Shown here: piece by piece, positions 39,936-64,000 of the stretch
How the letters are laid out: every line of letters begins with the position of its first letter
Position numbering within the stretch: position 1 is the first letter of the stretch
NCBI GenBank assembly: GCA_048886685.1
Contig: JBHLKM010000015.1
Location: forward strand, 49,073-113,072
DNA length: 64,000 nucleotides
Origin: Candidatus Hodarchaeota archaeon
GTDB lineage: Archaea > Asgardarchaeota > Lokiarchaeia > Sigyniarchaeales > SOKP01
Reading direction: 5' to 3'
Position numbers and translations under genes: made by a program
The notes under the pieces: generated by a model
The model's input: only the letters and a program-made list of their open reading frames with translations
Databases searched by the model: none
Told to the model about the DNA's origin: nothing

Positions 39936-40107
39936 CCTATGAGTACAACTCCATAACATCATTCACCCGAATAGCATCTACTTAATTAAAATATTGTTCA
40001 ATATTTAGCTTAGAAAAGAAACAAAAATTTGAAAATTAGAACATTTGGCTTGAATTAAAAGAAGATTAAGTAGAGAAAATCCCAATCTTTTTACTTTCTA
40101 CATCGTC

Positions 40108-40135
40108 TTTTCAAAGGAATTTTCATTGAAATCAG
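40108..40135 (+). repeat. Repeat A copy 1 (left part only)
   Basis: ttttcaaaggaattttcattgaaatcag. Confidence 0.85.
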
Positions 40136-40630
40136 GCTAAAAAATAAGCAGGGTGAGTTCGTCATCGCGAAAGATAGCTTAGAGGTAAACAAACCATTGA
40201 AAATAGAAACCTAAAGGGTGTGAAAGCTAAATCTTAATAAGGATATTCAACTATCTTAGTGTGAATATCTAAAGGTGAATCCAATATTCCCTGTTTTTTT
40301 AGAAAAGTAAGAATTAGAGAATTACTGCAAACCCTTGTGGATATCTCCCAAGAACAAATCTATCAAGAGCTTCTTAAGGAAAAAAGCGATAAGGAGCTTC
40401 ATGAAATGGACGAAAATGAGCTAATATTCTTAATTCTTGAGGTGTTAAAACGATTAGAAAAGAAAAAGATGAAAAAGGAAGTTAAATTAATTTATATTTA
40501 GCCATAATCACAATTGTTCTACTTCTGCTCGTTTCATGTTCTCTCACTTCCCAGTAAAAATTCTACGAGATATTTAAATGTCTCCTTCACATTCTCTCTA
40601 AACTATTGAATACTGTTTAGTTTTTCCATT

Positions 40631-40667
40631 GAATTTTCATTGAAATCAGAAGCTGAATTTACTTTCA
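40631..40667 (+). repeat. Repeat A copy 2
   Basis: gaattttcattgaaatcagaagctgaatttactttca. Confidence 0.9.
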
Positions 40668-40766
40668 TGAATATTTTTTTTGATAGATCCCTAGATTAAA
40701 TAAAACAGAATAAGATAAGATTTAAAAAAAAAATAGTTTGATGGTTAAGAATATCAATTAAATTAT

Positions 40767-42105: not shown

Positions 42106-42132
42106 TTGATTATTTATCCAAAAATTTATATA

Positions 42133-42168
42133 AATTTTCATTGAACTCAGACGCTGAATTTACCATTC
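42133..42168 (+). repeat. Repeat A copy 3
   Basis: aattttcattgaactcagacgctgaatttaccattc. Confidence 0.9.
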
Positions 42169-42599
42169 GAGAAGTAGACTTTTTAAGCAAAAATTTTTAT
42201 TTAAAAATTCTTAAAAAAAATATTCGTCAATACTGAAAATGAACTCATCCTTCTATCATAAGGATAAGGAATCTATAATTCGTAAACTTTTTTAATTTTA
42301 TGATACTGTTTAGATATTCGATGGAATTATAATCGATTCAAAGCAATTTGGGACATAATTTAGTAAGGTTATCTGCTATTCCTATTAGCGAACAATCTTA
42401 TATCCCAATATTAAAAATTTCTCTCTCTTTTTGTTCTAAATCCTACAATTTCCCTCTTAATATAAATAAATTTATTAAAGTTGTTAATCTTTATTTTTAA
42501 GAATAAGAGTATATTACAACCATTTATATAAGAATTTTATATAGGTTCCATCAAAAATTCAAAATTTTCTAAATGAAAATTATGTAGAAGGAAACAATT

Positions 42600-45500
42600 T
42601 TGACAGAAAATTTATATTTTAAGAGAAAAAAAAAAAGGATTCTCTTGATTTCCTTTATTTTCATTTTTAACTTAATTTCAATAATCTTCCTACCAAGCAG
42701 TGTTATAATTATAAAAGATATAAAGAAGAGTTTTGATAATGTAATCGATGATAATACTTTTTTTATTCAAACTTCTTCAGGTGGTCCTCCTAATAGAGCC
42801 TATTTTAAATATTATAAAGTAATAACAATTGATAATGCAAAGGTCTCTGGTTCAGGAAACCATAAAAATTATCCTGTGTTAATTTCCCTATTTGATTCAG
42901 ATTTACATGATAATGTCCAACTAAATGGCGAAGATATTGCTTTTTCTAACGATACAGCATGGTTGGATCACGAACTAGAACTATTTAAAAAGGATTATAA
43001 TGGAACACACGCTCATTTGGTAACATGGGTAAGAATTCCTTCGTTATCCACTTCAACAGATACCAAATTCTATATGTATTATAGCAACTCCACTATGGGG
43101 GCTCGGGAGAATCCATCTGGCGTATGGGAAGGCAACTTCAAGGGAGTGTGGCATCTATCAGAAGACCCAACAGGAACAATCTATGATTCAACCTCCAACA
43201 ACAATGATGGTACATCCCAAGGTGTTATGACTTCAGGTGACCAAGTAGATGGTCAAATCGATGGAAGTTTGGATTTTGATGGAAATGATGATAATATTAG
43301 GATAACTGATGCTGCTAGTTTGGATATTACCTCTGCCATTACGGTTGAAGCATGGGTTAATGGAACGGGAAATTGGTGGAATTCCAAATATCAATATAGG
43401 AAAAAGATAAATATAACAAATAATTACGGCTCTACAGTTGTGGCGAATACTATAGTCAAGTTTACCGCAGACACAGCGACTCTAATTTCAACTGGCAAGC
43501 TTAGAACCGATGAGAAAGACTGGAGGATTGGATATTGGGATGGTTATTCTTGGATTGAGCTAGCAAGAGATGTTTATATTGGATGGGACACATCGAACAC
43601 AGAAACATGGTTTAGATTACAAGCAGATATAACTGATGGAAATTCGGATAACAATTATTATGTATATTATGGATATTCTGATGAGATTGGAACTCCTACA
43701 ACTTTAGGTCTTTCAGAAGGCATTATAAAACAACAACCTGCTGGAGGAATGGGATGGGACAAAGCTATAGATTACATGGATAACATAGAATGGGGACTTG
43801 CCCAAGCATATAGCTATTCACCTTCATACACAAGTTGGTATGTTGTTACAAAAATAAGCTGGTATTGCTCTCACGAAGATAGCACTACTTCCCAATTACT
43901 TGCTGGTTACATTTTTGACGGTATTAACAAGCTAGAGGGTGAGGAAATTACTAATGGAAAAAGTGCTACATTCACAGGGAGTTCAGTTGTCAAAAATGCT
44001 TATAATGATGCGGTATTCTCAAAACCATATCCTCAGCCAGAAAGAGGTAGCACTTACTATATGGCTCTCTTCCCCGATTCTAGTCGTACTGCTTCAATGG
44101 AACCTATTTTTTGGGCTATTGAACTTTCTGCTGGTAATGGAGCTTATTGGGTAATAAGATCGGGAACTTGGACTTTATGGGGAAGTAATGGAGATTTTAA
44201 ATATCAACTCTATGGATATGAAGCCCCAAATAATGACTGTGTAGCCTCTCTTGGCTTAGAAGAACAAAATGGAATCAATAAAGGGAATGCCCCTTCTCTT
44301 GCCTTTGATAATTCAAATGTTGCAGGGCTTATAAATAATAAAGTTATATTCGCCAATATTGGAGCTGGTTGGAATTATGTAGTCTTAACTTACGATGGCA
44401 CTAATCAAACATTATATGTCGATGGGGAATTAAGGGAGACCTCAGCACTCACTGGAGCTATAAACACAAATATCAATGACTTAATCATCGGAGATTTCTT
44501 CAATGGTATAATTGATGAAGTCCGCATTTCCAGTATTGCACGTTCTGCTGATTGGATTAAGACAGAATTCAACAACCATCATGAACCAAATCGTTTTTAT
44601 TCTGTTGGCAATTCCACCATGGTTGACAATATTCCCCCAAAATTTTCAAATTTAAGCGAAAGTTCAGATCCTCTAGAATTAGGTGATACTGAAATTATTA
44701 CGATAAACGTTACCGATCTATTTGGGATTAACCAAGTTTTGATAGAAAATGAAGGGGGTAACCACTCAATGACAAACATTGTGGGAGATCTGTGGCAATA
44801 TGACTCTTGGACTCCTGCAAATTTAGGTAATTATACATACACGATTTATATGGAAGATATTAACCACAATTGGAATTCTACTAGTGGCTCGATCAGAGTA
44901 GTTGATACTACGCCGCCAACCTATTCAAATTTAATAGAAAGTGCTGATCCTTTAAAATTAGGACAAAATGAAACGATAACCATTAAAGTTTATGATTCTC
45001 CAGGTTCAGGAGTGAACCAAACGATATTAGAATATGAATCATTGAATTATACGATGATATTTATGGGTGAAGAAACGTGGAATTGGAATAACTGGAAACC
45101 AACTTCCGAAGGACTCTTTCCTTATAAAATATACATGCAAGATATGCAAAATAATTGGAATGTAACAAATGGTAGCATTACTGTAATAACTACAACTGCG
45201 CCTGTTATAGAAAATCTGACCGAAAGTGCAGATCCTTTAGAATTGGGAAATAATATTACCATTGCTGTAGATGTATCTGATAATGAAACTAGCGTATCAT
45301 CAGTGCTAATCGAATTAGAGGGCGTAAATTATACAATGAGTAATATTGGAGGAAATACTTACGAATATAACTGGACGAGAAGCTTGGTTGGAATTGTTGT
45401 GTATACAATTTATGCAAATGATACAGGAAATAATTGGAATAAAATAACTAGTAGTTTTGATATTGTAGACACAACACCACCTTCTTTTACAGATCAAATT

Positions 45501-47450
45501 GAGAGTCAAAATCCATTAGAACTTGGAAATACTGAAGTAATATCTATTAATGCTACAGATCTAACTGGTATTAAACAAATAAAAATCGAATTTGAAGGAA
45601 GTAATCACTCGATGTCAAATATCGGTGGAGACACTTGGCAATATAATCTTTGGATGCCCTCTACTACAGGAAATTACTTCTACACGATTTGGATCGAAGA
45701 TAATAATAACAACTGGAATTTTTCTTTAGGTTCAATTATAGTTCAAGATACAATAGCACCTTTTTATTCAAATTTAACGAAAAGTGCTGATCCCGTGGAA
45801 TTAGGGACTATTTTAATCATAAATATTAATATTACTGATTTATCTAACATCAAACGAGCTTTAATAGAATTTGAAGGTTCTAACCACTCAATGATAAATA
45901 TTGGTGGAGATTTATGGCAATACGACTCTTGGATGCCTAACAAAATAGGTAACTATTCATACACGATTCATATGGAAGATAATAACAATAATTGGAACTC
46001 CACTAGTGGTTCAATAATTTTCCAAGATACAATTTCACCGGTTTATTCAAATTTATTTGAAAGCGCAGATCCTTTAGAATTAGGTGAAAGCATACTTATC
46101 AGAATTGATACTAATGATTTTGCAGGTATCAACCAATCTTTAATAGAATTTGAAGGATCAAATCATACTATGATTAATATCTATGGAAATACATGGCAAT
46201 ATGATTCCTGGACTCCAAATAATTGGATTATTTACCAATATAAAATTTATATCGAAGATAATAGCGGTAATTGGAATTTTACGAATGGCAATATTACAGT
46301 TTATGACACCACGCCCCCACTTCCACCTGTTATAACTATGGCTCCAAGCGGAGATGTCAGCGGGATTTTAACATTTGATTGGATAGATGGTTTTGATCCA
46401 TCAGGTATATCTTATTATATCTTAATTATTGATAATGAACCCGACCCGTTTATTACACCTGGATATGTATTTATATTTAATATTACAAATATAAGCCCTG
46501 AAAGCAGCTATTGTGAATTACCCGAAACTCTTCCGCAAGGAAAATATTATTATTTCCTAGCTCAAGTAGATGGGTTAGGACATCAAAGTAGCTATACTAC
46601 AGGAACATTTACTGTTGTCTCAACTAATAATAATCTTATGATTTATATCATTATTGGAATAACATTAATGAGTATAATTGGTTTAGTCTCTACCGCAATT
46701 ATAGTGAAAAAAAGAACGAAAAAAGATGTACTCCCTCAGAAAGAAAAGATTCCTTTTAAAATAGTAATTTCCCATATAAATAACATTTCAAGTTCGCAAT
46801 TTATTTCTGAAAAAGAAGGATCTAAGAAAAAATTAATAAAAAAAGAAACCGATAAAACATTTTGGGATGAAGAATTTCTAGATGAAAAAGAATTAGGCAA
46901 CCGATTAAATGAAATTAGATTATTAGGAGAAGAATTATTTGCTGATGGAGCTTATCTAGAAGCTCAAAAACAATTTGAGGAAGCTGAAAAACTGCTTTTG
47001 AAATTTAATAAAAAAGAAGAAGCATCTTTATATTCAGATTTAATTGCTGGAATTCAAGGATTAATTGAAGAAAGGGAAAGCAGATTGGCAAAGTTAGAAC
47101 AGGAAAAATTAGAGGGTAATTCCATGAATATCTTTAATTTGTATTATGATATAATTGAAATCTCAAGAAAGTTAAAAGATGCTGATGGTGTAAGTATGTA
47201 TCAGTCCGAATTGATTCAATTATTAAGAGATGGTAAAGTTGAATTTACAGATTTAGAATATCAAAGATTGAATTTAGAGGACCAAGCAAATGCATTACTT
47301 AATGATAATCTTTTTGAAAGAGCAGCTAAAATTTTTGAAAAATGTGAAAAAATTTCTCACTTTTTAGTTCGATCTGGAAACGATCCAGAGAAAACTAATT
47401 TAGAAAAATTTAGAAACAAAAAAAATGAATGTCTAAAGAAAACCAAATAA
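42600..47450 (+). CDS. Large membrane-anchored surface protein: DUF2341/LamG-like, six Ig-like repeats, TM helix, helical cytoplasmic tail
   Basis: N-terminal hydrophobic helix, WVRIP…YMYY, GIIDEVRIS, six ~93-aa ESADPLELG repeats, TM IYIIIGITL…KKR. Confidence 0.85.
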   Translation: MTENLYFKRKKKRILLISFIFIFNLISIIFLPSSVIIIKDIKKSFDNVIDDNTFFIQTSSGGPPNRAYFKYYKVITIDNAKVSGSGNHKNYPVLISLFDSDLHDNVQLNGEDIAFSNDTAWLDHELELFKKDYNGTHAHLVTWVRIPSLSTSTDTKFYMYYSNSTMGARENPSGVWEGNFKGVWHLSEDPTGTIYDSTSNNNDGTSQGVMTSGDQVDGQIDGSLDFDGNDDNIRITDAASLDITSAITVEAWVNGTGNWWNSKYQYRKKINITNNYGSTVVANTIVKFTADTATLISTGKLRTDEKDWRIGYWDGYSWIELARDVYIGWDTSNTETWFRLQADITDGNSDNNYYVYYGYSDEIGTPTTLGLSEGIIKQQPAGGMGWDKAIDYMDNIEWGLAQAYSYSPSYTSWYVVTKISWYCSHEDSTTSQLLAGYIFDGINKLEGEEITNGKSATFTGSSVVKNAYNDAVFSKPYPQPERGSTYYMALFPDSSRTASMEPIFWAIELSAGNGAYWVIRSGTWTLWGSNGDFKYQLYGYEAPNNDCVASLGLEEQNGINKGNAPSLAFDNSNVAGLINNKVIFANIGAGWNYVVLTYDGTNQTLYVDGELRETSALTGAINTNINDLIIGDFFNGIIDEVRISSIARSADWIKTEFNNHHEPNRFYSVGNSTMVDNIPPKFSNLSESSDPLELGDTEIITINVTDLFGINQVLIENEGGNHSMTNIVGDLWQYDSWTPANLGNYTYTIYMEDINHNWNSTSGSIRVVDTTPPTYSNLIESADPLKLGQNETITIKVYDSPGSGVNQTILEYESLNYTMIFMGEETWNWNNWKPTSEGLFPYKIYMQDMQNNWNVTNGSITVITTTAPVIENLTESADPLELGNNITIAVDVSDNETSVSSVLIELEGVNYTMSNIGGNTYEYNWTRSLVGIVVYTIYANDTGNNWNKITSSFDIVDTTPPSFTDQIESQNPLELGNTEVISINATDLTGIKQIKIEFEGSNHSMSNIGGDTWQYNLWMPSTTGNYFYTIWIEDNNNNWNFSLGSIIVQDTIAPFYSNLTKSADPVELGTILIININITDLSNIKRALIEFEGSNHSMINIGGDLWQYDSWMPNKIGNYSYTIHMEDNNNNWNSTSGSIIFQDTISPVYSNLFESADPLELGESILIRIDTNDFAGINQSLIEFEGSNHTMINIYGNTWQYDSWTPNNWIIYQYKIYIEDNSGNWNFTNGNITVYDTTPPLPPVITMAPSGDVSGILTFDWIDGFDPSGISYYILIIDNEPDPFITPGYVFIFNITNISPESSYCELPETLPQGKYYYFLAQVDGLGHQSSYTTGTFTVVSTNNNLMIYIIIGITLMSIIGLVSTAIIVKKRTKKDVLPQKEKIPFKIVISHINNISSSQFISEKEGSKKKLIKKETDKTFWDEEFLDEKELGNRLNEIRLLGEELFADGAYLEAQKQFEEAEKLLLKFNKKEEASLYSDLIAGIQGLIEERESRLAKLEQEKLEGNSMNIFNLYYDIIEISRKLKDADGVSMYQSELIQLLRDGKVEFTDLEYQRLNLEDQANALLNDNLFERAAKIFEKCEKISHFLVRSGNDPEKTNLEKFRNKKNECLKKTK

Positions 47451-47640: not shown

Positions 47641-47775
47641 GAAAGAATAAAAAAACACTAGAACATTTCTTAGCACAAACTCTTACTATTGAAAGTGAAG
47701 ACCAAGAATGTTGGCAAATATAAAGAATTTGAAATTATCTTAAAATTTAAGTCAAAGAAATAATAAAAAAATTGG

Positions 47776-47911
47776 AAAATCTTTGCTCACGAACATACTC
47801 CTTTTTTACCATTCCAAATACTTCCGCAATCCCTCAAGCCCTAAGCCTGAACCTTGTGCTCCCCTTTCGACTTCCACACACTCGTGCTATTGAGAGTAGC
47901 AGGCTAAATAG
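47776..47911. repeat. Repeat B1: copy of the 23S rRNA 3' tip plus trailer
   Basis: 47831-47911 matches 63881-63961 at 80/81 nt; also gctcacgaacatactcctt. Confidence 0.95.
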
Positions 47912-48785
47912 ATTTTTTCAGCTTTTTACTAAGAAAAATTACTACAATAAATGAAATACTAAGTAGTGAAAATAGACTATATCCTGGAATTCTTTCGGTA
48001 GTCTTAAGTTGAATTGTTATCGAAAATTCTTCTGTAATATAATTTTCTTTGCTAATGGTGATAATTCCCGTAAGAGTATTTGAAGTCATCATATGTGTAG
48101 GGTAATTAAGTATGTATGTACCATTAGAAGTTTCAGTAAAATCATAAGAAGAGTCCCCTATTGTCAGTATAATAGTAGCATTTAATACAGGAATACCTCC
48201 TCGAGTAGGATCAGTCAAGTTAATTCCAATAGGGACCACACGACCTTTAGCAACGCTTATTTGATTATTCTTAAAATTACTACTCAAAGAATATTCAAGA
48301 ACCCTTTTCATAATTATTAAAAGAACAGTCGCATTTTTTGAATCGTAGTTCTCTTTATCAAAAGTTGCAATTATCTCATACGTTCCAACATCTCTCGTTT
48401 CAGTCTCGAAATCTAACACATAATGATGATTCCCAGTTTCAATAAGAAATCCGCTGCCGCTGTCAATGGTTTCATTCAGATTGTTAAATTGCTTCCAAGA
48501 ATAAGAGGCATTACTTAATCCTGTTAATGGGACACCTGATTCATTTGTATAGGTAAATGTAAAATTAACAGCATCCCAAATAAAGATGTTCGTATCTAAG
48601 TGGAATTCTGAACTCTCATTTATAAGAGTTGGTAAGTCTGCTGAATATTCTGGTATCTCTATCTTAAAATTCATAAAACTGCCATTTATATTCGGTTGTC
48701 TTAAGTCTTTTAAATACACTAAACTTATGACATTGATAAAAAGAGATATCAGAATTATTGTTCTTAATTTCTTATTTAATTTCAC
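47904..48785 (-). CDS. Secreted Ig-like surface protein with IPGY-TM-basic C-terminal anchor
   Basis: Signal-like N-terminus; C-terminus RIPGYSLFSLLSISFIVVIFLSKKLKKSI. Confidence 0.8.
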   Translation of the reverse strand: MKLNKKLRTIILISLFINVISLVYLKDLRQPNINGSFMNFKIEIPEYSADLPTLINESSEFHLDTNIFIWDAVNFTFTYTNESGVPLTGLSNASYSWKQFNNLNETIDSGSGFLIETGNHHYVLDFETETRDVGTYEIIATFDKENYDSKNATVLLIIMKRVLEYSLSSNFKNNQISVAKGRVVPIGINLTDPTRGGIPVLNATIILTIGDSSYDFTETSNGTYILNYPTHMMTSNTLTGIITISKENYITEEFSITIQLKTTERIPGYSLFSLLSISFIVVIFLSKKLKKSI

Positions 48786-49268: not shown

Positions 49269-50345
49269 ATGAGAAAATCTGGAGAAATTCGAGTAATAAT
49301 ATTACTATTATTAGGAATACTGTTTGCTTTTTTACCAAAATTTACCACCAATCTTAATTTTAAAAACTCAGAGTGTAATGATAATATAAGTTTAGATAAT
49401 GAAAATTTGAAAATTTCAAAAATATCAGGAAAAATTCATATTGATGATACCAATCCAAGTATGAACTGGTCTGTTGCGAGAGATGCGGGAATTTGCATAG
49501 GGAATGGCACTTATTCTGAGCCGTATGTCATAGAGGATTTAGTAATAAACGGCGTTGGTTCAGGAGATTGCATTTTAATCGAAAATTCGGATGTATACTT
49601 TAGGATTGAAAATTGTACGGTCTACAATTCTGGGATTTACCCTCTTAGTGGAATCTTGGAACCTTGGTATCATTTTGCAGGAATCCGATTAGAAAATGTA
49701 AACAATTCTTTATTACTTGATAATGATTGTTCCTCTAACAATGATGGAATACACGTAGCTGGTTTTAATAACACCATTTCGGGAAATACCGCAAATAACA
49801 ATATTAATGGGTCTGGAATATTTGTAGATGGTTTTAAAAACACCGTTGAGGGAAATACCGCAAATAACAATGATTTTCCTGGGATATGGTTAGGTGGATA
49901 TAATTCCACGGTTTCAGGAAATACTGCAATGAATAATAGTTTCGCAGGTATTGGGATAATGTTAATGAATTGTTATTACAACAATGTTTCTGGAAATACC
50001 GCAGCTATACAATTATTTGATAGCGATTATAACAATGTTTCTGGAAATACTGGAGCTGGAATAGCCTTGTTTGCTAGCGATTATAACACTATTTCAGGAA
50101 ATACTGCAAGTTATAGGATAATTTTAGATGAAAGCGATTATAATACCATTTCTGGCAACGAAGCATGTTGGGAGGAACGTGGTGACTGTGAAGGAAACGT
50201 ATTTAGCGATAACAATGGACCTTGTCCCCCGCCTAAAGAAGGAATTCCAATTGAATTAATAATTTTAATTTCGGTTCTTAGCGGGGGGGCAGTGATAGGG
50301 CTAACAACGATTCTGTTAATTAGACACAAAAGGAAAAGAATTTAA
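49269..50345 (+). CDS. NosD/CASH right-handed beta-helix surface protein with C-terminal TM anchor
   Basis: GNGTYSEPYVIEDLVI, repeated NTISGNTA units, C-terminal TM plus basic tail. Confidence 0.88.
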   Translation: MRKSGEIRVIILLLLGILFAFLPKFTTNLNFKNSECNDNISLDNENLKISKISGKIHIDDTNPSMNWSVARDAGICIGNGTYSEPYVIEDLVINGVGSGDCILIENSDVYFRIENCTVYNSGIYPLSGILEPWYHFAGIRLENVNNSLLLDNDCSSNNDGIHVAGFNNTISGNTANNNINGSGIFVDGFKNTVEGNTANNNDFPGIWLGGYNSTVSGNTAMNNSFAGIGIMLMNCYYNNVSGNTAAIQLFDSDYNNVSGNTGAGIALFASDYNTISGNTASYRIILDESDYNTISGNEACWEERGDCEGNVFSDNNGPCPPPKEGIPIELIILISVLSGGAVIGLTTILLIRHKRKRI

Positions 50346-50390
50346 TAGTATATTTTTTTTTAAATATCTCCCTACTTTAATTAATACAAC

Positions 50391-50448
50391 TTTTTCAAAG
50401 GAATTTTCATTGAAATCAGACGCTGAATTTACCTTTCCATTCCAATTT
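50391..50448 (+). repeat. Repeat A copy 4 (full)
   Basis: tttttcaaaggaattttcattgaaatcagacgctgaatttacctttccattccaattt. Confidence 0.97.
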
Positions 50449-50467
50449 CAAAGGAAATCTTCTTTAA

Positions 50468-51259
50468 CTATTTTTTCCCATAAATAATTGACGAACCACC
50501 AATTTTCGTCACTTTCTCCTGACTTTTTTGAATTATTTTTTCTACAACACCAGATATAATATCTTTCTGTAATTTTTTACATCCCAATATAACATCTTCT
50601 TCTGTTAAGAAGGAAAAAGTTGAAATACTATCCCTATACTTTCTTTTCAAATAGGATTCTGGTGTCTCATTTATCACTACCTCATCTTGAAAACATATAT
50701 CAAAATCTACATTTGAAAACCCAACATTTTCAAGAAGTTTAGTAATCTCTCCTACATCAGGAATTCTTGTTAAGTCCACATTAAGACCTTTTGGAAAGTA
50801 GTGATAAAACCAGAATGCTCGCATTTGTGTATGAGAACAAGAATGTATTGCTATATATGCTTCTTTCCGAAGTATACGATAGGCTTCTCTTAAGAAAGAA
50901 TTTTTGTTTTTAACATGATGGAGTACTTGGATTGCAAATATCCCATCAAAAGTTTCAGAATTGAAAGGAAGATTTTTAATATTACCATATATAAAATTTA
51001 ACATAGGATATTTCATATGAGCTTGTTTAATCATATCTATGGATATATCAATTCCGATGATGAATTGTGTTATTTGTTGCAGTGCTGCTGTATAATTTCC
51101 AGTGCCACTACCCATATCAAGAATTATTGAGTTTTGATCTATATGTAATAATTTAATCAACTTTTCTACTGTTTCACTATTTGAAGCCCTGCTTATATCG
51201 TAGATTTGACTTATTTTTTCATAACTAATAGATTTATTATATTTCCCCATATAACTCAT
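50468..51259 (-). CDS. Class I SAM-dependent methyltransferase (type 11)
   Basis: ILDMGSGTGNY, LPFNSETFD, VLHH. Confidence 0.9.
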   Translation of the reverse strand: MSYMGKYNKSISYEKISQIYDISRASNSETVEKLIKLLHIDQNSIILDMGSGTGNYTAALQQITQFIIGIDISIDMIKQAHMKYPMLNFIYGNIKNLPFNSETFDGIFAIQVLHHVKNKNSFLREAYRILRKEAYIAIHSCSHTQMRAFWFYHYFPKGLNVDLTRIPDVGEITKLLENVGFSNVDFDICFQDEVVINETPESYLKRKYRDSISTFSFLTEEDVILGCKKLQKDIISGVVEKIIQKSQEKVTKIGGSSIIYGKK

Positions 51260-52022: not shown

Positions 52023-52196
52023 TGTCTTTCTATATAGATGATTCTTTCCTTATTAAATTATAAATTAGCTATATAAATATTATTAAAAATAACGATATTA
52101 AAGTGTGAGGAATAAATAATTAAGACTTTAAATCATAAAGTTAATATTTTTTAGAAAACTTTTTCGATTCCGAATCTTTCTTGATTTTACTTTGTG

Positions 52197-52280
52197 TTTT
52201 CAAAGGAATTTTCATTGAAATCAGACGCTGAATTTACCTTTCCATCCAATTTTCACAGAAAATTGGGACAAAATTAAAAA
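52197..52280 (+). repeat. Repeat A copy 5 with extended right flank
   Basis: ttttcaaaggaattttcattgaaatcagacgctgaatttacctttccatccaattttcacagaaaattgggacaaaattaaaaa. Confidence 0.97.
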
Positions 52281-53455: not shown

Positions 53456-53580
53456 AATTTATCCCATATTTGATTCATTTGGGTTTAAGTGTTAAATAAC
53501 ACTATGGATTAAAGGTAAGGAAGAAAAGGTTTCTTAAAAGCCTTTTGAACTATAATTATAATTTAAGATTTTTTTATCTT

Positions 53581-53626
53581 TTTTCACCAAATTTTCATTG
53601 AACTCAGACGCTGAATTTACCTTTCC
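53581..53626 (+). repeat. Repeat A copy 6
   Basis: ttttcaccaaattttcattgaactcagacgctgaatttacctttcc. Confidence 0.95.
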
Positions 53627-54087
53627 TAACTTTTCTATATGCACTCGAAGAGTTAGCCTATGATATTTATAAAAATTTTGGAGGATTAATAGATACTTAT
53701 AATGGTAATATCAAACCGTTTAAAGGAATAGAAGACATAATTAACCAACATCTAAATATCTCGCCAAAAGTGAAACTTAATCAAACGGAAAAAGATATAA
53801 TAGAAAAAACAAAGTCACAACTAACTCAAACAGAGCGCGAGGTGATGAATCGACTAAAAGAAAAGTTAAAAGATTTACTTAAAAAGTTTAATGATGATGA
53901 TTTTTTTCCTTATCCATATATCTTTAAGCCTCCAAGTCCCCCTGGAGATGACGTGTTACAGGGGCAACTAAAACCAGAATTTATACCACCCAAAAAAAAG
54001 CAAGAATTTGAGCCTTATTGCAAGCATTGTGGTGCTGAACTACCTGCTGTACAATTAATTTGTCCTGCTTGCGGAAAGAAGATTTAA
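53626..54087 (+). pseudogene. 5'-truncated gene with C-terminal zinc ribbon (ORF track 53770..54087)
   Basis: Frame stays open with protein-like sequence (ALEELAYDIYKNFGGLIDTYNGNIKPFKGIEDII) back into repeat A6, with no ATG; ends YCKHCG…CPACGKKI. Confidence 0.65.
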
Positions 54088-54742: not shown

Positions 54743-54785
54743 TTCTTCTGTTATAATTATCTATTAAACATTTTTGTAATATAAT

Positions 54786-54840
54786 TTTTCACTAAATTTT
54801 CATTGAAATCAGACGCTGAATTTACCTTTCCATTCCAATT
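54786..54840 (+). repeat. Repeat A copy 7
   Basis: ttttcactaaattttcattgaaatcagacgctgaatttacctttccattccaatt. Confidence 0.95.
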
Positions 54841-54890
54841 GGCTTCTTGAAGTTTCTAATTTCCTCTTGCTGAATTTTAGAAGTTTTTTT

Positions 54891-55016
54891 AATGGTGATT
54901 GTACCTATGGTCAAGGAAATGGAGAACAAGCCATTTCAGGATATAATATATCACTTGTACTTAATTTTCTATTCATTATAGCAATTATAATCAGTAGAAA
55001 AATAAAGAAATCCTAA
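54891..55016 (+). pseudogene. Orphan C-terminal sorting/anchor fragment
   Basis: Manual translation NGDCTYGQGNGEQAISGYNISLVLNFLFIIAIIISRKIKKS-stop. Confidence 0.7.
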
Positions 55017-55060
55017 AATTAAATTAACGTGCTCTTTTATTTTTATTGAATTTGTTTATT

Positions 55061-55110
55061 TTTTTCAAAGGAATTTTCTTTGAAATCAGACTCTGAATTT
55101 ACCTTTCCAT
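55061..55110 (+). repeat. Repeat A copy 8
   Basis: tttttcaaaggaattttctttgaaatcagactctgaatttacctttccat. Confidence 0.95.
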
Positions 55111-55290
55111 AACATTTGAATAGATTGATAGTATTGTTCAAATTTTTAGTGGTAAATTAACCATTTTATTTGTAAATTTAGAATTTCACTAGCAAAAATG
55201 TTAAATTAGTTTTAAAAACAACTTTAACCTAATTATCATTTAACAAAAATTTTCCATGTATAATATGAATAAAAAATGAGATGACTATTT

Positions 55291-58014: not shown

Positions 58015-58182
58015 TTCTTTTTTTTTTCATTTTTGTGAAGTAAGTTGCCTTGTTTATAAAAACTTCTACTCTGATTTTGTTTAGATAGCATAGAGAAAGT
58101 AAGGTTTTATTAAGAAATAAGAAATTAGAAAATACATTAATAAAATGAAAAATAAAGCAAAAATACATCTCAAGAAAACTAG

Positions 58183-58219
58183 TTGAAATCAGACGCTGAA
58201 TTTACCTTTCCATTTCAAT
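58183..58219 (+). repeat. Repeat A copy 9 (left part missing)
   Basis: ttgaaatcagacgctgaatttacctttccatttcaat. Confidence 0.9.
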
Positions 58220-58494
58220 GCTAATTTGAAGACCTTGAATCAAAACTTAATTTTATAAAACTGAAATTAGAAATTTCTAATTTTGTTAAATAGATCTAAA
58301 TTTGTTTTAGAAATCTTAATGAGTTAAAACAGAATAAATTCAGTAAAGGTTTAAAGTTCATTCTAAGTTCAGCAATTAAATCTATTTTATTAATAGTTAG
58401 TACAATATTCATAAGTATTGAAATAATGAAAAGGAATTTTATGGTTGAGAAAAATTGTTTGAATCAAGTCCAATTACTTTAAATCAACTAAATT

Positions 58495-60441: not shown

Positions 60442-60450
60442 TTTTCTCTC

Positions 60451-60538
60451 TTTTTTCAAAGGTATTTTCATTGAAATCAGACCCTGAATTTACCTTTCCA
60501 TTCCATTTTCACAGAAAATTAAGACAAAATTTAAAAAA
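60451..60538 (+). repeat. Repeat A copy 10 with extended right flank
   Basis: ttttttcaaaggtattttcattgaaatcagaccctgaatttacctttccattccattttcacagaaaattaagacaaaatttaaaaaa. Confidence 0.97.
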
Positions 60539-62573: not shown

Positions 62574-62660
62574 TAAGTAAAAATTGGATCTAAAATAAGG
62601 GAAGAAGGATTTCCTTAAAAGCCTTATGTACGAGAATTTCGATTTCTGATTTTCTTTAGT

Positions 62661-62708
62661 TTTTTCAATGGAATTTTCATTGAAATCAGACGCTGAATTT
62701 ACCTTTCA
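62661..62708 (+). repeat. Repeat A copy 11
   Basis: tttttcaatggaattttcattgaaatcagacgctgaatttacctttca. Confidence 0.95.
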
Positions 62709-62729
62709 TGAATATAAAATTAAAAAATA

Positions 62730-62850
62730 AAATCTAAGCTCAAGAACATACTCCTTCTAATCCATCTCAATCTCATCCGTTTCCTACCAGCCAAAATACG
62801 ACCACAAACCCTCAAACCCTAAGCCTGAACCCTGTAATCCTCTCTCGATT
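62730..62850. repeat. Repeat B2: diverged copy of the 23S trailer
   Basis: aagctcaagaacatactccttc…ccctcaaaccctaagcctgaaccctgt is colinear with about 63808-63923. Confidence 0.88.
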
Positions 62851-63696: not shown

Positions 63697-63806
63697 TAAA
63701 TAAACCTCGTAATTAAATATAGATGTGTTTATTTTTTTGATTAATAATTATTAAAAATTTCCTATTAATCACGGATTAATGAGATTTATCGGTTAAAAAT
63801 AAAAGT

Positions 63807-63919
63807 AAAATCAAAGCTCAAGAACATACTCCTTCCTACTCATCCCAAACTTATTCTTACCAGTCAAAACACGCTTCATACCCTCAAGCTCTAAGCCTGA
63901 ACCTTGTGCTCCCCTTTCG
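63807..63919 (-). other. 23S rRNA 3' trailer, probably including the 3' strand of the pre-23S processing stem
   Basis: Purine/GC-rich segment right after the 23S end on the minus strand (GGGGAGCACAAGGTTCAGGCTTAG); pairing partner would lie outside the window. Confidence 0.55.
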
Positions 63920-64000
63920 ACTTCCACACACTCGTGCTATTGAGAGTAGCAGGCTAAATAGGTCGCCCGAAAGCTCCCTACGTACACCCCTACCTCACCA
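63920..64000 (-). rRNA. rrl: 23S rRNA, 3'-terminal ~80 nt (gene continues beyond the window; mature end approximate)
   Basis: Reverse complement TGGTGAGGTAGGGGTGTACGTAGGGAGCTTTCGGGCGACCTATTTAGCCTGCTACTCTCAATAGCACGAG fits the archaeal 23S terminal helices (GGGGTGTA…TT[CT]AGCCTGC…CAAT..C.CGAG), with pairings GUAG/CUAC and UAGG/CCUA and a UUCG loop. Confidence 0.85.

Follow-up and report, generated by a model that had tools for sequence, protein, structure and literature searches.

Sedentary chromosomal integrons and CALINs (attC clusters that lack an integrase), which also occur in archaea and are enriched in Asgard lineages (Ghaly et al. 2022, PMC9668308), form long arrays of co-oriented sites, with one site per gap between unrelated, mostly single accessory genes. 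The order of their cassettes varies between genomes and most arrays lie without an adjacent integrase. Short dyad duplex sites bound gene modules in the dif/pdif systems of Acinetobacter plasmids, in IMEX (Xer-exploiting elements) and in archaeal XerA/dif, where a host protein with its gene at another locus acts as the enzyme; dif itself consists of two 11-bp inverted arms and a 6-bp spacer with a TAA(N6-8)TTA hallmark (PMC2958812, PMC11840125). In tandem accretion of integrative elements and derivatives without integrase (CIME/tycheposon type) at tRNA/tmRNA 3' ends, direct repeats stand at every module junction. Here we describe repeat A, an archaeal repeat that shares all of the above array features with integrons and CALINs and the direct repeats at module junctions with accretion arrays, and that, like the dif-type sites, is a short dyad bounding gene modules, in a genome whose sole classical recombinase is XerA-like. 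No published description of repeat A was found in the literature searched. Based on comparisons of metagenome-assembled sequences, we consider it reasonably probable that repeat A is a polar, sequence-specific duplex site of about 36 bp at the joints of accessory-gene cassettes in one family of Lokiarchaeia (Promethearchaeota).

The window, by which we mean the whole 64-kb stretch of DNA analyzed, contains nine matches to the central pattern of repeat A (two 4-bp palindromes with 3-nt centers), where 0.03 were expected from shuffles. A tenth copy has its left arm replaced and there is one left half copy; every copy lies on the plus strand (Table 1). Between 40 and 63 kb, each intergenic gap holds one copy, whatever the direction of the neighboring genes. 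For example, the copy that includes positions 50397-50436 is flanked by convergent genes, a NosD-like gene at 49269-50345 (+) and a methyltransferase gene at 50468-51259 (-). The first-pass annotation of this DNA had described the motif at these positions, and it was right about the letters, about the reality of the repeat and about the variants of individual copies (AAG, ACT together with a TTT loop, ACC, and GAAC twice). The host genome (4.4 Mb, 31% GC, 47 contigs) carries about 47 copies, clustered in co-oriented arrays. Four contig ends fall inside a copy (the ends of C6, C12 and C19 and the start of C20); the arrays fragment the assembly and may belong to fewer, longer arrays.

Table 1. 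Repeat A copies in the window and the rRNA gene at its right border.
Feature	Positions	Strand	Match
Repeat A left half; similarity ends directly after TCAG	40099..40135	+	nhmmer, C15:89171-89207
Repeat A copy, center AAG (AAG at 40635), family D2	40617..40678	+	
Repeat A copy, GAAC variant (42136)	42118..42179	+	
Repeat A copy containing 50397-50436; conserved core about 50402-50437	50387..50448	+	
Repeat A copy, followed by optional module B (about 52239-52280)	52192..52253	+	
Repeat A copy, GAAC variant (53593), between divergent genes	53575..53636	+	
Repeat A copy; next copy just 277 bp on (gene-less module)	54780..54841	+	
Repeat A copy, first loop TTT and center ACT (55075)	55057..55118	+	
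Repeat A copy, left arm replaced; similarity from TTGAAATCAG (about 58183)	58160..58221	+	
Repeat A copy, center ACC (60466), followed by module B (about 60495-60536)	60448..60509	+	
Repeat A copy; partial 23S rRNA trailer copy (62723-62848) directly after	62657..62718	+	
23S rRNA gene 3' end, cut by contig end	63920..64000	-	Rfam RF02540, model 2908-2987/2987, E 2.8e-9

Several other features of the window were recorded. A gene-less module of about 215 bp (54842-55056) separates two copies and resembles the empty cassettes of integrons. Directly after the left half copy lies a GC-richer, structured-looking stretch (40136-40290), for which Rfam returned nothing but a sub-threshold PreQ1 match at 40285-40331. 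An open reading frame of 1,616 aa with internal 279-nt tandem repeats (44622-46345) occupies 42600-47450 and probably encodes a repetitive surface protein; the neighboring open reading frame at 47904-48785 (-) has a Loki-CTERM sorting domain. The 3' end of the 23S rRNA gene forms the border of the array region and is not part of repeat A. The tip of this 3' end, together with its trailer, is present in three co-oriented copies (47770-47911, 62723-62848 and 63801-63961), of which 63801-63961 is the true gene end; 47831-47911 and 63881-63961 match at 99%. A trailer-like motif, GCTCAAGAACATACTCC, is also found beside copies of repeat A in other genomes (loci L035, L041 and L080). The distribution of these tails suggests that a second, rRNA-tail-based insertion system may be interleaved with the repeat A array.

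Repeat A occurs across one family of Asgard archaea. An initial search of the genus recovered the core from all 23 species covered. Within the family, two large genera have it in 33 of 34 and 35 of 36 species, and it also occurs in several smaller genera; 16 genomes from other families of the order yielded none. Named records with the core come from MAGs of Promethearchaeota (Loki-type Asgard). Many further copies lie on contigs of marine-sediment metagenomes, and no exact matches were obtained among viral contigs. Two GC-rich exact matches, one of them (L009) in a MAG labeled as alphaproteobacterial and the other at locus L151, were taken as chance.

The genes next to repeat A are unrelated accessory genes. 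They encode alpha/beta hydrolases, NosD-like and Loki-CTERM surface proteins, TPR, LRR and GNAT proteins, and further cargo includes a methyltransferase, HAD proteins, M28 peptidase, substrate-binding proteins and small GTPases. Cassettes reach 8 kb, their genes point either way and they seem to carry their own promoters. Clusters of open reading frames that recur around copies all proved to be cargo, and nothing unusual is encoded at the borders of arrays (beta-lactamase-fold, enoyl-CoA hydratase, NMO, DUF7000 and Arf-like genes). Downstream of roughly one copy in three (approximately 40 loci) there is an optional module B, a CCAATTTC..GAAATTGG palindrome and then a AAAATTTAAAAA box; the module is part of the downstream cassette. 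Where the following gene shares its strand, module B looks like a BRE/TATA promoter; it also occurs where the following gene ends at this place. A hairpin in module B, with a stem of 7-9 bp formed by CCAATTTC and GAAATTGG, was considered and rejected: RNAalifold returned no consensus pair, the counted pairs equaled those of shuffles and there was no covariation.

We then asked how copies are arranged relative to each other and to their neighbors. Copies are co-oriented in all 47 multi-copy loci of other genomes and in all 38 metagenome contigs, 85 of 85 in total. Neighboring genes, on the other hand, lie in the same or the opposite orientation about equally often (139 vs 132 downstream, 159 vs 142 upstream). 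Co-orientation combined with independence of gene direction excludes a promoter, a terminator or an mRNA element and shows that the polarity resides in the DNA. Among 228 copies, 57 pairs have a common upstream flank, 67 have a common downstream flank and none has both, so that the neighbors have been reshuffled exactly at repeat A. One locus (L080) consists of a copy, a 1,083-bp cassette and another copy, and its counterpart (L025) has a single copy with the same flanks and no cassette; the 35-45 nt after the site differ as well.

Pairs of copies with one common flank also indicate where the exchange takes place. Homology of upstream flanks extends through the core and ends after ACCTTTC, and homology of downstream flanks includes the core and reaches about 9 nt beyond its left edge. 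Within the core, the left arm is discordant at 9.4% in pairs sharing the upstream flank and at 14.9% in pairs sharing the downstream flank, while the respective values for the right arm are 12.1% and 5.7% (odds ratio 0.30, nominal p = 5e-5, with copy pairs that are not independent). Discordance of the central ACN is alike in both classes (27-28%). Since the left arm goes with the upstream flank and the right arm with the downstream flank, the exchange point maps to the center, the 'loop 2' of the proposed hairpin. Incomplete copies are consistent with exchange at the center: similarity breaks off at GAAA, TCAG, TCAGA or TTAGAC in four left halves, and about 8 right halves begin between ATCAG and TTTACC. 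About ten copies retain only the part from TTGAAATCAG onward and thus do without the 5' strand of hairpin 1. Some observations count against a cassette joint. Breakpoints of the half copies are spread over about 15 nt and do not fall on one bond, and arrays contain sites with center ACG beside others with ACT, a mixture that would impede strand exchange should this base be part of the overlap. No G000 contig with terminal overlaps, as expected of circular cassettes, and no excision product was observed, and the single metagenome contig bounded by copies on either side showed no overlap. Overall, co-orientation, independence of gene direction, reshuffling of neighbors and a location of the apparent exchange point at the center are demonstrated by the comparison of copies across genomes.

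Conservation within the core is uneven. Repeat A consists of a left arm up to TCAG, a center ACN and a right arm from CTGA through ATTTACCTTTC, and the right arm is the best conserved part. Just one base of the core varies freely, the third of 'loop 2' (T 86, G 77, A 10, C 4), and the last base of 'loop 1' comes second in variability. Conservation of the stems proposed earlier favors the 3' strand by a factor of 2-8: non-consensus bases amount to 10.7% in the AAT 5' strand vs 1.3% in its ATT partner, 9.3% in TCAG vs 4.0% in CTGA and 37% in AAAGG vs 14% in CCTTT. Base pairing cannot yield this asymmetry, whereas base-specific reading of the right half can. Boxes of the TTTCAnnGAAA type (TTTCAAAGGAA and TTTCATTGAAA, with TTTCACAGAAA in module B) recur at a spacing of about 12 nt through and beside the core (50380-50470 and the consensus), as do 12-mers ending in GAAT; both may represent iterated protein-binding boxes.

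We propose that conservative recombination between pairs of copies would account for the gain, loss and reshuffling of cassettes. It would be catalyzed by a protein that recognizes the duplex arms and has its gene at another place in the genome or on an element that escaped binning. The small palindromes that had given rise to the twin-hairpin idea would then reflect the symmetry of protein half-sites, and the variable base of 'loop 2' an uncontacted center where strands are exchanged. Position-specific conservation across genera, the central mapping of the exchange and the complete lack of inverted copies speak for a dedicated protein that reads the site as duplex. The first-pass annotation had in fact offered paired palindromic protein-binding half-sites in duplex DNA as its alternative, and this would fit the data, given position-specific conservation across a whole archaeal family and free bases at the dyad centers. 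Tentatively, and with less confidence, one can think of an undescribed, family-wide cassette-exchange system whose enzyme would act in trans and fall outside the searched classes (tyrosine recombinases other than XerA, serine, DEDD/IS110 and Y1 HUH), possibly an analogue of the integron working on duplex DNA that would cut at the center of the TCAG-ACN-CTGA dyad and move promoter-bearing cassettes in either gene orientation.

The search for a recombinase covered both the genome and the surroundings of the copies. Genome G000 gave a single PF00589 match, a XerA-like tyrosine recombinase distant from any array; this type (about 307-322 aa) is present as a single copy in nearly every genome of the genus. 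No serine recombinase and no IS110-type enzyme was found in G000. In the same genome, reported as 100% complete, there were 0 matches to Y1 HUH (PF01797) and no integron integrase, and the single weak match of Cas12f/TnpB type was below the family cut-off. Across 1.23 Mb centered on copies (223 loci), a profile built from eight local tyrosine recombinases detected no tyrosine-recombinase-like open reading frame, and repeat A was nearby in none of 20 recombinase loci from relatives. Two candidates were examined and rejected. A 424-aa tyrosine integrase located 2.7 kb from a copy in genome G007 is sporadic (7 of 34 species), is in many cases a pseudogene and has relatives without any copy of repeat A in their vicinity. 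This integrase gene is inserted beside pyrD along with an AAA_15/Schlafen-AlbA_2 ATPase gene (L104, G007:C43, 7892-11689), and the insertion is probably a defense island unrelated to repeat A. For the other candidate, an integrase at L122 with an apparent half copy at a distance of 4 kb, the half copy falls within a 980-aa open reading frame and is a chance match.

That no dedicated recombinase was found counts in favor of a rival scenario, in which the copies serve as portable homology and the general homologous-recombination machinery exchanges or converts cassettes at them, the sequence being kept for another reason such as binding of a chromatin or boundary protein, or through constant homogenization. 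General homologous recombination would yield much of the same pattern, and integration of circles by this route also gives co-oriented repeats. The half-copy breakpoints, which are not sharp, point the same way, and so does the central base, which is mildly structured by genome (within-genome sharing 0.55 vs 0.46 in shuffles, 6/2000), as gene conversion would give. However, conservation is position-specific across genera, and one free base within an otherwise fixed 36 bp argues for base-specific recognition rather than homogenization. The exchange, moreover, maps to the dyad center and not anywhere in the shared segment, and homologous recombination would invert or delete at oppositely oriented copies, of which there are none in 85 loci. 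We regard this scenario as less likely, but as a serious rival.

The first-pass annotation had put forward a different substrate. It read the repeat as a T-shaped twin hairpin, two abutting 4-bp stems closed by outer stems, and suggested selection on a folded ssDNA or RNA substrate, as for attC, IS200/REP ends or parvoviral-type hairpins. On this reading the single strand, like attC bottom strands, IS200/IS605 ends or REP elements, would be cut or recombined by a structure-specific enzyme. Part of this description holds. The twin hairpin is the minimum free energy structure of the 40-mer with DNA parameters on both strands (ViennaRNA), the two most variable core bases sit in its two loops, and co-oriented site arrays between cassettes are reminiscent of integrons. 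The fold is nevertheless weak: it reaches -2.8 kcal/mol and 5.5% of the ensemble with z = -0.54, 55 of 200 dinucleotide shuffles of the 40-mer fold as well or better, and longer contexts around the 40-mer gave no significant folding z-score. With RNA parameters the optimal structure is a different, weak fold. The statement that variation is concentrated in the loops applies only to their final bases (32% and 41% non-consensus); elsewhere in the loops and in the bulge, 4-11% of bases depart from the consensus, as in the stems.

Covariation provided a further line of evidence. In 173 distinct copies there were almost no double changes among the 16 proposed pairs, and the outer AAAGG/CCTTT stem was paired in only about 60% of copies. 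Many of these copies had been fetched by an exact pattern, and the count was therefore repeated on 75 copies not selected in this way. In these, 81.1% of cells were paired vs 81.0% in shuffles, and the covariation score was 0.072 vs 0.070 in shuffles, a value reached by 161 of 500; there is thus no covariation. For the 11 inner pairs, 111 departures from the consensus pair comprised 1 compensated change, 27 G-T wobbles and 83 pair-breaking changes. The reported invariance of TCAG/CTGA did not survive the larger samples, in which changes at these positions are uncompensated. The annotation had named the finding of no compensatory changes in a larger alignment as the result that would speak against its fold, and this is how the covariation check came out. 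Along with the absence of covariation and of any thermodynamic excess over shuffles, the better conservation of the 3' strands, the copies that do without the 5' half of hairpin 1 and a genome devoid of a Y1 HUH enzyme and an integron integrase make a folded single-stranded substrate very improbable. Nothing indicates selection on the T-shaped twin hairpin, and the hairpin idea can be set aside.

Two further readings fare no better. Arrays of binding sites for a protein that organizes or insulates the chromosome, not directly involved in recombination, would suit sites that are polar, phased and clustered and the TTTCAnnGAAA boxes spaced at about 12 nt, but they leave unexplained the reshuffling at the site, the arm variants that segregate with their own flank and the half copies, and we consider them quite improbable. 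A function at the RNA level, as a small RNA, as a processing signal of the C/D-box-like or bulge-helix-bulge kind, or as a terminator or UTR element serving the neighbors, might be suggested by the T-run upstream of many copies and by weak minus-strand C/D-box snoRNA matches over 62657-62718 (24.6 bits vs a gathering threshold of 60), yet it is highly improbable with an orientation independent of the direction of both neighboring genes, no Rfam match at gathering thresholds, a weak RNA structure unlike the proposed fold and no covariation. On direct reading, canonical C/D boxes and 3-nt bulges are absent, and the C/D-box sRNA and bulge-helix-bulge candidates were rejected.

As a cassette joint, repeat A would mark where these large, open genomes take up and reshuffle accessory genes such as those for surface proteins, hydrolases, small GTPases and proteins of the TPR and LRR types. 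The exchange point at the dyad center and the conserved right arm offer a concrete probe for finding the enzyme. The repeat can also be used to find variable gene arrays in Asgard MAGs, whose assemblies such arrays interrupt.

Compared with known systems, repeat A comes closest to integrons in the organization of its arrays and differs from them in the site. In the consensus of 36 to 177 copies, the R'' (RYYYAAC) and R' (GTTRRRY) boxes of attC are absent and there is no AAC/GTT at the arm ends. In attC the structure is conserved and the sequence varies, whereas the sequence of repeat A is nearly invariant and its pairs do not covary. Cassettes of attC arrays are mostly co-oriented with the site, in contrast to the cassette genes of repeat A, which point either way. 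An integron integrase was found neither in G000, whose sole PF00589 match is the XerA-like one, nor in the 1.23 Mb around copies. Unlike attC, repeat A is a site of about 36 bp common to a whole archaeal family, with cassettes of up to 8 kb. In short, repeat A fails every defining test of attC and has in common with integrons the co-oriented sites between unrelated cassettes.

The other described systems depart from repeat A in different ways. Read directly from the consensus, its TCAG-ACN-CTGA dyad has a 3-bp center and, unlike dif, no TAA(N6-8)TTA hallmark; neither a dif-like geometry nor an archaeal origin box, which was also considered, fits. Furthermore, pdif modules alternate in site orientation, whereas repeat A arrays are strictly co-oriented. 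The hairpins of REP/RAYT and IS200/IS605 come with a Y1 HUH gene and a stable, compensated stem, neither of which accompanies repeat A with its 4-bp stems. T-shaped terminal hairpins of parvoviruses form the ends of a linear single-stranded replicon and fold into a stable three-way junction, while copies of repeat A are chromosomal and intergenic and their fold is marginal. With accretion arrays, the array of the window has in common that it abuts the 3' end of an RNA gene, the 23S rRNA gene, the tail of which is triplicated. The repeat of accretion arrays duplicates the 3' end of a conserved target gene. A gene-derived master copy of repeat A was not found, and no copy has both flanks conserved between genomes. 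Some modules of accretion arrays carry an integrase, whereas none was found in the 1.23 Mb around repeat A, and repeat A arrays occur at several loci per genome, unlike accretion arrays. With no integrase in cis, the repeat A array can be classed as a cassette array built on a probable duplex, non-attC site.
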